A DNA stretch of 64,000 nucleotides from the sequence record PQ438391.1. One strand, written 5' to 3'. Below the pieces are notes generated by a model, which saw nothing but the letters and a program-made list of their open reading frames with translations, ran no database searches and was not told where the DNA came from. The position numbers were made by a program, and so were the translations under genes. Origin of the DNA: Escherichia phage vB_Eco_T-01. Positions within the stretch are counted from its first letter, which is position 1. Every line of letters begins with the position of its first letter. Of the stretch, positions 26,526 to 27,073 are shown piece by piece.

Positions 26526-26732
26526 ATGTTAAATCGTTGGATTAAACCAAATGAAGATTTAGATATTATCATTTCACGGCATGTAATGAAGAAATATGAA
26601 TTGCAACCATGGTCTACAGAAGTTGTTGTGCATTCATTTATGATGTACGCAGATGGTTCTGTCGAATTTAATGCAGAGATTCGATATGATTATGGTGAGA
26701 AGCAAGTCGAATTCAAAAGAGGCTTTTTGTAA
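26526..26732 (+). CDS. hypothetical protein
   Basis: 68-aa ORF after an early promoter. Confidence 0.4.
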   Translation: MLNRWIKPNEDLDIIISRHVMKKYELQPWSTEVVVHSFMMYADGSVEFNAEIRYDYGEKQVEFKRGFL

Positions 26733-27073
26733 TGTTTATCTTTAATTGGTTTAAAAGTTTCTTTACGGATTTTTTCTCTACGACTCCTGGGGAAGGTGTA
26801 GTTCCTATTTCAAATGACTACCTTCCTTTAACTGTAGTTGAATATGTTTATATGGGAGATGGAACAGTAGAAGCAGTTACTATGACTTATGAAGAAGCCC
26901 AAGAATATTATAAAAATCCTTGGCGCTGGTCAGTACCTACTACATCATCTAATGCACAGAATACACAGTCTAGTTCTGATTCATATGACACCAATGTTCC
27001 TGTTCATGTATGGACGGGCGATTCATGCGGAAGTTCTTGTGATTCTAGTTGTTCATCTACATCTTGCGATTGA
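26732..27073 (+). CDS. hypothetical protein with Cys/Ser-rich C-terminal tail
   Basis: 113-aa ORF ending [18 protein letters not shown]. Confidence 0.45.

Follow-up and report, generated by a model that had tools for sequence, protein, structure and literature searches.

A conserved cysteine pair at the C terminus of Mrh.1, a small protein of T4-like phages, and its possible thiol- or metal-based role

Introduction

Why does a small phage protein end in a run of serine, aspartate, and cysteine, and what could such an ending do? The question is raised by an open reading frame (ORF) of 113 amino acids at positions 26732-27073, plus strand, of a 64,000-nucleotide stretch of Escherichia phage vB_Eco_T-01 DNA (PQ438391.1), which is called the window throughout. 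An earlier note, made from the letters of that stretch, had pointed to the ending as a metal-binding or disulfide-rich tail. Here, we identify the ORF as mrh.1 of the T4-like phages, follow its tail across the protein family, and set a tentative reading of the tail as a metal-chelating arm against its rivals.

The ORF is mrh.1 and belongs to the DUF7206 family

The ORF is the ortholog of the T4 early gene mrh.1, because its product is 97% identical to T4 Mrh.1 (NP_049642.1, T4p027, UniProt P20706), matches DUF7206, and is encoded in a conserved gene order. The two proteins share 110 of 113 residues, with V68T, A75T, and T95A as the only substitutions, and their tails are identical. The Pfam match to DUF7206 (PF23836) scored 103.4 bits against a cutoff of 25.6, with residues 3 to 113 placed on positions 1 to 107 of the 107-position model, and the protein also matched PHROG 2031, which is listed as "unknown function" (phrog_2031, E = 1.8e-33). 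In the annotations of RB14 and T4, the genes run 56, a variable slot, soc, mrh.2, mrh.1, mrh, srh, modA.4/.3/.2, and modB; the order in the window (56, soc, mrh.2, mrh.1, mrh, srh, modA.x) agrees with both. The source phage is a Tequatrovirus, and the 4 kb around mrh.1 matched 760 phage records, mostly of Escherichia and Shigella Tequatrovirus, at up to 97.6% identity.

mrh.1 is, then, an already catalogued T4 gene and not novel as an object, and membership in DUF7206 explains no mechanism. No Pfam family besides DUF7206 matched Mrh.1 at E values up to 1, and PDB profile searches with Mrh.1 and Mrh.2, PADLOC, and NCBIfam gave nothing above threshold. A literature search on mrh.1, DUF7206, P20706, and T4p027 found no main-text discussion and no published function, and one on mrh.2 returned unrelated magnesium papers only.

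The tail is the best-conserved segment of the protein

The cysteines of Mrh.1 are C99, C103, C107, and C112, all of them in the tail, with the spacing C-x3-C-x3-C-x4-C; the 18-residue tail is composed of 8 Ser, 4 Cys, 3 Asp, 2 Gly, and 1 Thr. The earlier note had described the ORF and its tail sequence exactly as they stand, and it had miscounted the four cysteines as six. Given the cysteine frequency of the window (1.13%, taken from ORFs of at least 100 amino acids), about one of the 22,555 stretches of 18 amino acids in ORFs of 60 or more amino acids is expected by chance to have at least four cysteines. Six ORFs were observed to hold such a stretch, two of which resemble real genes, mrh.1 and the ORF at 388-858. 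By composition alone, the cysteine content of the tail is within chance, and it is conservation that takes the tail beyond it. The other plausible gene, ORF 388-858, contains GCRVVLFVTGCLHKCEGC, a CxxxCxxC motif that is radical S-adenosylmethionine-like, and is probably the anaerobic reductase activase NrdG.

Conservation was followed in a full-length alignment of 34 sequences (A1) and in 116 protein clusters, one representative each, from T4-like phages of Enterobacterales; residue numbers for the latter set are those of P0008, a JS98-like protein. In a profile search at E values up to 10, nearly all of the best 120 of 152 matches carried the DUF7206 domain. The distant relatives, which come from T4-like phages of Escherichia, Salmonella, Klebsiella, Citrobacter, Enterobacter, Serratia, Yersinia, Edwardsiella, and Erwinia, share only an N-terminal M-x-x-W-L-K-x-L-F helix, the motif P-G-E-G-V-V-P-I, a hairpin motif, and the tail. 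In a column-by-column comparison, no other segment is as well conserved as the tail, where the most frequent residue reaches a fraction of 0.86 to 0.99, versus 0.41 to 0.59 in the middle of the protein.

Counted over the 116 clusters, the penultimate residue is a cysteine in all 116, and a second cysteine is found upstream of it in every cluster. The protein ends in SCD in 107 clusters, in GCD in 5, in TCD in 2, and in SCN or GCN in 2; the Mrh.1 homolog of the Mosigvirus AV110 ends in SCE. Exactly two cysteines are present within the last 25 residues in 111 clusters, four tail cysteines in only 4, and no cysteine outside the tail in 107. The last two cysteines are 4 to 10 residues apart, most often 6, and are separated by a Ser/Gly spacer. 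S103, C104, D105, and S106 (P0008 numbering) are at least 90% conserved. The family tail reads (S)-Y-D-S-G-...-S-C-D-S-[SG]-x(3-6)-[SGT]-C-[DN]-COOH, and Mrh.1 of T-01 has, in both alignments, the N-terminal W-[LF]-K helix, the E-Y-V-Y-M-G-D-G hairpin, and the ...S-C-D...S-C-[DN]-COOH tail that mark the family.

As read from these alignments, the family signature is two S-C-D motifs, the second at the free C terminus, usually after (S)S-Y-D-S-G, and the four-cysteine tail is a Tequatrovirus-specific form in which Tyr or Ser positions have turned into Cys. Close relatives retain all four cysteines. The upstream family cysteine pairs with T4 C103 in a tail-only alignment and with C107 in A1, so that its assignment depends on the alignment. 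The earlier note had held out, as the case against its idea, a tail conserved in no homolog; instead, the cysteine pair is present in all 116 clusters. As for the cysteine spacing, which the note had suggested following in homologs, only two of the four cysteines are kept outside Tequatrovirus, and the spacing seen in T-01 is not a family feature.

One family member, P0003 of Escherichia phage 235Ecol030PP (164 amino acids), has a 50-residue JS98-type insertion and the same four-cysteine tail at its end. It appears as a mosaic of a T4-type N-terminal half, a JS98-type middle (MEEIIRQPEKAGNVG...LNSKKLKEHL...), and the four-cysteine tail, a layout that indicates recombination within mrh.1 that keeps both ends. 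Yersinia phage fPS-90, in which the tblastn match spans 432 bases, may have a similar long form.

The residues that flank the cysteines are also strict: among 241 tail cysteines, Ser stands before 227 and Asp after 221. Such flanks are what would be expected if the repeated S-C-D were read by an enzyme or partner and its Cys (or Ser or Tyr) covalently modified, in a layout like that of the precursor of a ribosomally synthesized and posttranslationally modified peptide (RiPP). The conserved N-terminal "leader" and Ser/Cys-rich C-terminal "core" would suit such a precursor, as would the small conserved gene mrh.2, which is probably translationally coupled to mrh.1, and residues 95 to 109 gave a subthreshold match to the core of the FxLD lanthipeptide precursor TIGR04363 (E = 0.034, 14.1 bits against a cutoff of 30). 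However, that match is far under the threshold and probably compositional. Among soc, mrh.2, mrh, srh, and modA.x, no neighbor resembling a maturase was found, and mrh.2 and mrh had no relevant match in Pfam, PADLOC, or NCBIfam. Mrh.2 has no sequence relative in the PDB, and the variable gap between the two S-C-D motifs would be unusual for a defined core peptide. We therefore regard a modification or recognition motif of this kind as unlikely.

Selection acts on the tail peptide

In nine T4-type genes, 6 of the 18 tail codon columns vary, and all of the changes are synonymous; in five JS98-like genes, the changes are synonymous in 6 of 7 variable tail columns. Between genera, the terminal S-C-D is written with TCG, AGT, or TCT, with TGT or TGC, and with GAT or GAC, the Ser codon switching between TCN and AGY. 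A cause at the DNA level, such as a ribosome-binding site of mrh lying over the stop codon or slippage repeats, was considered and rejected, because the sequence downstream of the mrh.1 tail differs between genera, because the changes are synonymous and include the TCN/AGY switches, and because no tandem repeat was found in the tail DNA. On this codon evidence, selection is acting on the tail peptide, and the cysteines are the selected feature. The tail is surely functional, given that it is the best-conserved segment, with an invariant cysteine pair and near-exclusively synonymous changes, and the selection on its cysteines fits a metal- or thiol-based role.

The same data bear on a simpler idea, in which the cysteines would be chemically idle and the tail would serve weak self-association, as a "sticker and spacer" sequence, or solubility and protease resistance. 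The family-wide composition of the tail (45% Ser, 17% Asp, 14.5% Gly, and 8% Tyr, with [G/S]-Y-[G/S]-like units) would suit this idea, as would the disorder predicted for most of the protein (see below). Nevertheless, composition alone would not fix the penultimate and upstream cysteines in 116 of 116 clusters, and the S-C-D flanks, the exclusion of cysteine from the rest of the protein, and the synonymous-only change would be left unexplained, which makes an idle tail quite improbable.

Predicted structure and location of Mrh.1

Mrh.1 is small, acidic, and, by prediction, largely disordered, with a variable low-complexity spacer before the tail. Two AlphaFold2 runs were made, one on 34 sequences (mean predicted local distance difference test score [pLDDT] of 56 and predicted template modeling score [pTM] of 0.26) and one on 116 sequences (pLDDT of 60 and pTM of 0.20). 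The two models are of low confidence and agree on a helix at the N terminus, a single beta-hairpin, one or two further short helices, and a tail predicted to be disordered. The hairpin block had a pLDDT of 72 to 78 in the 34-sequence run and of about 81 in the deeper run, and the tail had a pLDDT of about 44 to 53 across the models. Y32, G34, and G36 in P0008 numbering (here Y40, G42, and G44) are invariant across the 116 sequences, and M1, K6, F9, and the linker prolines P13 and P19 of P0008 are at least 90% conserved.

The predicted N-terminal helix covers residues 3 to 15 here and 3 to 8 in the JS98-like form, with a hydrophobic moment of 0.45 and a mean hydrophobicity of 0.46; the moment is 0.44 to 0.62 in three of the four types tested and 0.22 in AV110. 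The T4-type N terminus is very hydrophobic and unusually aromatic. In most genera, the N terminus reads M-I-x-W-L-K-N-L-F-K-T-K-P-G-E-G, an amphipathic segment of about nine residues that is interrupted by Lys.

This N terminus can be held against the alternative of an exported protein with a disulfide-rich tail, which goes back to the earlier note. The four cysteines within 14 residues in T-01 and the hydrophobic, aromatic T4-type N terminus would agree with export. However, the N terminus is short and Lys interrupted; inspection, made by eye and not with a predictor, found no signal-peptide core, cleavage site, or lipobox in the family N terminus; and most family members have two cysteines only. 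An exported Mrh.1 is thus hardly credible, and a disulfide-rich tail, as the note had put it, is unlikely on the same grounds. The tail should lie in the reducing cytoplasm, because the N-terminal helix is too short and too charged for a signal peptide.

Expression and fitness of mrh.1 in related phages

The RNA class of T4 mrh.1 and mrh.2 is early (PMC9697503, supplementary file 4), which supports, for the T4 ortholog, the description of Mrh.1 as an early protein in the earlier note. The T4 Mrh.1 protein was undetected by proteomics (PMC9697503 supplement). The trypsin peptides of Mrh.1 have 8, 53, 4, and 48 residues, and these awkward sizes may explain why it was undetected. In a genome-wide dCas13d knockdown of T4, mrh.1 was scored "Semi-Fit" (score of 0.79, p = 0.069, 5 guides). 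Only five genes in that class, mrh.1 among them, have a purely unknown function; mrh.2, mrh, srh, and soc were "Not Fit" (PMC11879866 supplement). In a report on AV110 early genes, 45 of which were tested for growth inhibition, the six inhibitory genes do not include the Mrh.1 homolog, which may or may not have been one of the 45 (bioRxiv 10.64898/2026.09.14.751387). This homolog is the 124th coding sequence (CDS) of the AV110 record and would be about gp127 by an offset of +3, as MotA is gp95 in the paper and the 92nd CDS in the record.

A candidate role for the tail in metal chelation

The reading that we favor, at a probability of roughly 0.35, casts the tail as a chelator, a flexible dithiol-carboxylate arm in the cytoplasm that binds a metal ion or cluster or the metal center of a target. 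The tail would then be the working end of Mrh.1. Its ligands would be the two thiolates, the Asp carboxylates beside them, and the free carboxylate of the C terminus, which together would enclose a metal ion, a cluster, or the metal center of a host or phage target; the N-terminal helix and the hairpin would supply localization or target binding. In Tequatrovirus, the two further cysteines, at positions held by Tyr or Ser in other genera, could complete a four-thiolate shell within one chain.

Chelation is favored over a rigid binding epitope for several reasons: the spacer between the cysteines is made of Ser and Gly and varies from 4 to 10 residues; Tyr and Cys, both of which are metal ligands, exchange at equivalent positions; the tail is always at the extreme C terminus and is predicted to be disordered; and an Asp carboxylate adjoins each Cys, the last of which is also near the free alpha-carboxylate. 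On these features of the sequences, metal binding by Mrh.1 is plausible.

Several points weigh against such an arm. The tail matches no known metal-binding motif: it has no CxxC pair and no match in Pfam, NCBIfam, or the PDB. Only two cysteines are conserved, so that, outside Tequatrovirus, a full site would need Asp ligands, a dimer, or a partner. The Ser-rich context is atypical of metal sites, and an enzyme or partner that recognizes the tail could account for the strict S-C-D flanks just as well. The tail was not ordered in the AlphaFold models (pLDDT of about 45 to 53), and the fitness effect of T4 mrh.1 is weak (p = 0.069).

The sigma32 neighborhood

mrh and srh are annotated as sigma32-linked genes, and Srh, encoded two genes downstream of mrh.1, is a postulated sigma32 decoy. 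Srh aligned with region 4.2 of Escherichia coli RpoH (residues 244 to 279) at 32% identity over 38 amino acids (pairwise E = 7e-4), which fits the decoy label, and its N terminus aligned weakly with RpoH residues 139 to 151. The N terminus of Srh also showed a weak profile likeness to Mrh.1 (hhalign P = 2.4e-4, probability of 43%, about 35 columns). The N-terminal helix of Srh, M-x-x-W-[LI]-K-x-[WL]-[FL]-x-x-P, resembles that of Mrh.1, and 9 of 13 N-terminal residues are identical between one Mrh.1 family member and the Srh-like protein of PEi20. Unlike Mrh.1, Srh has an unrelated C-terminal half with a helix like RpoH region 4.2, and it lacks a Cys tail. The N-terminal similarity is suggestive, and it hints that an N-terminal targeting helix could be common to several small early proteins of this cluster, with the C-terminal working end differing from one to the next.

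A likeness between the Mrh.1 family and the RpoH box of sigma32, in the N terminus (WLKNLFKTK) and in a middle motif (LPLNSKKLKEHL), was also considered as mimicry and was rejected as not significant. Compared with region C of E. coli RpoH (QRKLFFNLRKTKQ), Mrh.1 gave an hhalign P value of 0.17, and shuffling gave p = 0.26 for the N terminus and p = 0.18 for the middle motif.

A bolder version of the chelating arm would make Mrh.1 a member of an undescribed class of phage effectors: a disordered protein that delivers a C-terminal thiol-carboxylate "warhead" (S-C-D-COOH and a second S-C-D) in trans to the metal center or redox site of a host enzyme, for example, as a pseudo-substrate of FtsH. 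We consider this a long shot. In the FtsH version, the amphipathic N-terminal helix would bring Mrh.1 to the inner membrane, much as phage lambda CIII depends on such a helix, the Ser-rich tail would thread into the protease chamber, and the Cys-Asp end would chelate the catalytic zinc. FtsH, a zinc protease of the inner membrane, degrades and thereby controls sigma32. The version would fit the sigma32-linked neighbors mrh and srh.

Like many other T4 genes, mrh.1 has no function assigned to it even in this best-studied phage. It is notable for its retention by T4-like phages with many different enterobacterial hosts, for a fitness signal (PMC11879866), and for a chemically suggestive tail as its most conserved feature; the rule of a C terminus with two S-C-D motifs and the fitness signal give a modest and cheaply testable lead. 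A trans-acting metal or thiol warhead, if the tail proved to be one, would give phages a new means of attacking a host enzyme; otherwise, mrh.1 would be an ordinary accessory gene with an unusual tail.

Organization of the mrh.2-mrh.1 locus

The features of mrh.1 and of its surroundings are collected in Table 1.

Table 1. Positions in the window of mrh.1, the segments of its product, and neighboring features
Feature	Position	Strand	Basis
mrh.1 CDS, 113 amino acids and TGA stop	26732..27073	+	ORF list, Pfam, PHROG, identity to T4 Mrh.1, gene order
N-terminal aromatic/amphipathic helix (predicted), residues 2-16	26735..26779	+	AlphaFold; family consensus M-I-x-W-L-K-N-L-F
P-G-E-G-V-V-P-I linker motif, residues 19-26	26786..26809	+	P19, G22, and P25 invariant (34 sequences)
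Beta-hairpin core (predicted), residues 34-52, the sole moderately confident structured element	26831..26887	+	AlphaFold strands 34-40 and 46-52
Ser/Asp/Cys-rich C-terminal tail, residues 96-113, predicted disordered	27017..27070	+	Sequence; pLDDT 44-48; family conservation
C99, extra Cys specific to Tequatrovirus (Ser or Tyr in other genera)	27026..27028	+	Alignments; tail counts
C103-D104-S105 of S-C-D-S, first family-wide motif	27038..27046	+	At least 90% conserved in 116 sequences
C107, second extra Cys, between the two family-wide SCD motifs (tail-only alignment)	27050..27052	+	Alignment; tail list
Terminal S111-C112-D113-COOH; penultimate Cys invariant family-wide	27062..27070	+	Last-three-residue counts, 116 clusters
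mrh.2, 68 amino acids, stop overlapping the mrh.1 start (TAATG)	26526..26732	+	ORFs; PHROG 1873
Sigma70-type promoter-like site: TTTACT, 17-nucleotide spacer, TATAAT, TG before -10	26471..26499	+	Consensus scan, 10/12 matches
Hairpin terminator after soc: 9-bp stem, then TTTTCATTTT	26434..26455	+	Consensus scan
mrh	27082-27567		
srh	27542-27745		
modA.3	27899-28369		

The promoter-like site, a consensus match only, is just upstream of mrh.2 and agrees with the early RNA class of T4 mrh.1 and mrh.2; mrh.1 is probably transcribed with mrh.2 from their own sigma70-type promoter. Together with this site, the strong terminator would set the late gene soc apart from the early unit that follows it on its strand. 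In the loci of the T4 type, the VR26/JS98-like type, AV110, and Edwardsiella PEi20, an Mrh.2-like ORF runs over or up to the start of mrh.1, even where mrh is absent; in the Serratia PS2 locus, no Mrh.2-like ORF overlapping or abutting that start was found. From this arrangement, mrh.2 is likely a cotranslated partner of mrh.1. In AV110 (L017 2308-2535) and PEi20 (L014 1256-1507), Mrh.2 has a C-terminal extension that runs past the mrh.1 start, with ...EEVVCC or ...FIC as its last residues; T4-type Mrh.2 contains no cysteine.

Other observations concern the wider neighborhood. Between gene 56 and soc, positions 25787-26151 of the window hold two small ORFs (64 and 57 amino acids); the same slot holds the SegF homing endonuclease in the T4 reference and an ORF of 228 amino acids in a VR26-like phage (L008 245-931), and it looks like a variable homing-endonuclease slot. 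In public records that match positions 27742-28560 (e.g., OZ035850.1 and OP856590.1), small genes of the modA.x region carry the label [quoted passage not shown] as found on one AV110 CDS (L017 3391-3570) and among the features of several other records. Almost certainly, this label stems from the name shared with E. coli modA and does not reflect a real function. In the VR26-like locus, a small ORF (L008 2820-3074) has an internal M-N-W-L-T-N-I (residues 8 to 14), which would be N-terminal if translation started at that Met, and an S-S-Y-S-S-C stretch; its likeness to Mrh.1 is loose and may be due to chance.

Comparison with known systems

Metallothionein-like peptides are defined by dense clusters of C-x-C and C-x-x-C, whereas Mrh.1 has four cysteines here and, family-wide, two that are 4 to 10 residues apart. 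Zinc ribbons and fingers carry two CxxC (or CxxH) knuckles on a folded scaffold; Mrh.1 has no CxxC, a tail predicted to be disordered, and no relative in the PDB. A RiPP precursor of the FxLD lanthipeptide type would pass the cutoff of its family model and have a modifying enzyme adjacent, and neither was found for Mrh.1 when the neighboring genes were scanned; an enzyme encoded by the host could take the place of the latter.

Class Ia ribonucleotide reductases also end in cysteines, and a C-terminal Cys pair of their alpha subunit shuttles reducing equivalents from thioredoxin or glutaredoxin. The NrdA C termini read ...DDGCESGACKI in E. coli and ...ADDCAACKL in T4. By analogy, the cysteine pair of Mrh.1 could cycle between dithiol and disulfide in trans, as a redox arm that feeds electrons to a target or as a pseudo-substrate that soaks up host or phage thioredoxin or glutaredoxin. 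Both kinds of tail are extreme C-terminal, acidic, and disordered, with a Cys pair near the end (C103, C107, and C112 are within the last 11 residues of Mrh.1), and the variable Ser/Gly loop between the cysteines is compatible with a disulfide loop. The likeness is one of analogy, not homology: the reductase tails are C-x2-4-C-K-[IL]-COOH and act in cis, whereas Mrh.1 ends in S-C-D-x(3-9)-S-C-D-COOH, with a Cys spacing of x4-10 and a C-D end, lacks sequence similarity to them, and is a small protein without a catalytic domain. In addition, an Asp beside each Cys should raise the thiol pKa and reduce reactivity, and the extra cysteines and the Tyr/Cys exchange would be left unexplained. We consider a redox role of this kind rather unlikely.

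Phage lambda CIII is a small early protein that is both inhibitor and substrate of the zinc protease FtsH and relies on an amphipathic helix (PMC1838920). Likened by description, it is, as is Mrh.1, a small early phage protein with an amphipathic helix; it differs from Mrh.1 in having no Cys tail and in being bacteriostatic on overexpression, and the two would not be expected to be similar in sequence.

For the chelating arm, the comparison is with terminal metal-binding peptides, such as the N-terminal H-C-D-x-x-C-G-x-Y hook of nickel superoxide dismutase and the Cys/His/Asp-rich tails of SlyD and HypB. Mrh.1 differs in using the terminus opposite to that of the hook, in having no His and far more Ser, and in bearing no sequence relationship to these proteins. 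What they have in common with Mrh.1 is a short disordered terminus in which Cys has Asp or Tyr nearby, and the nickel superoxide dismutase hook itself carries the series C-D...C...Y.

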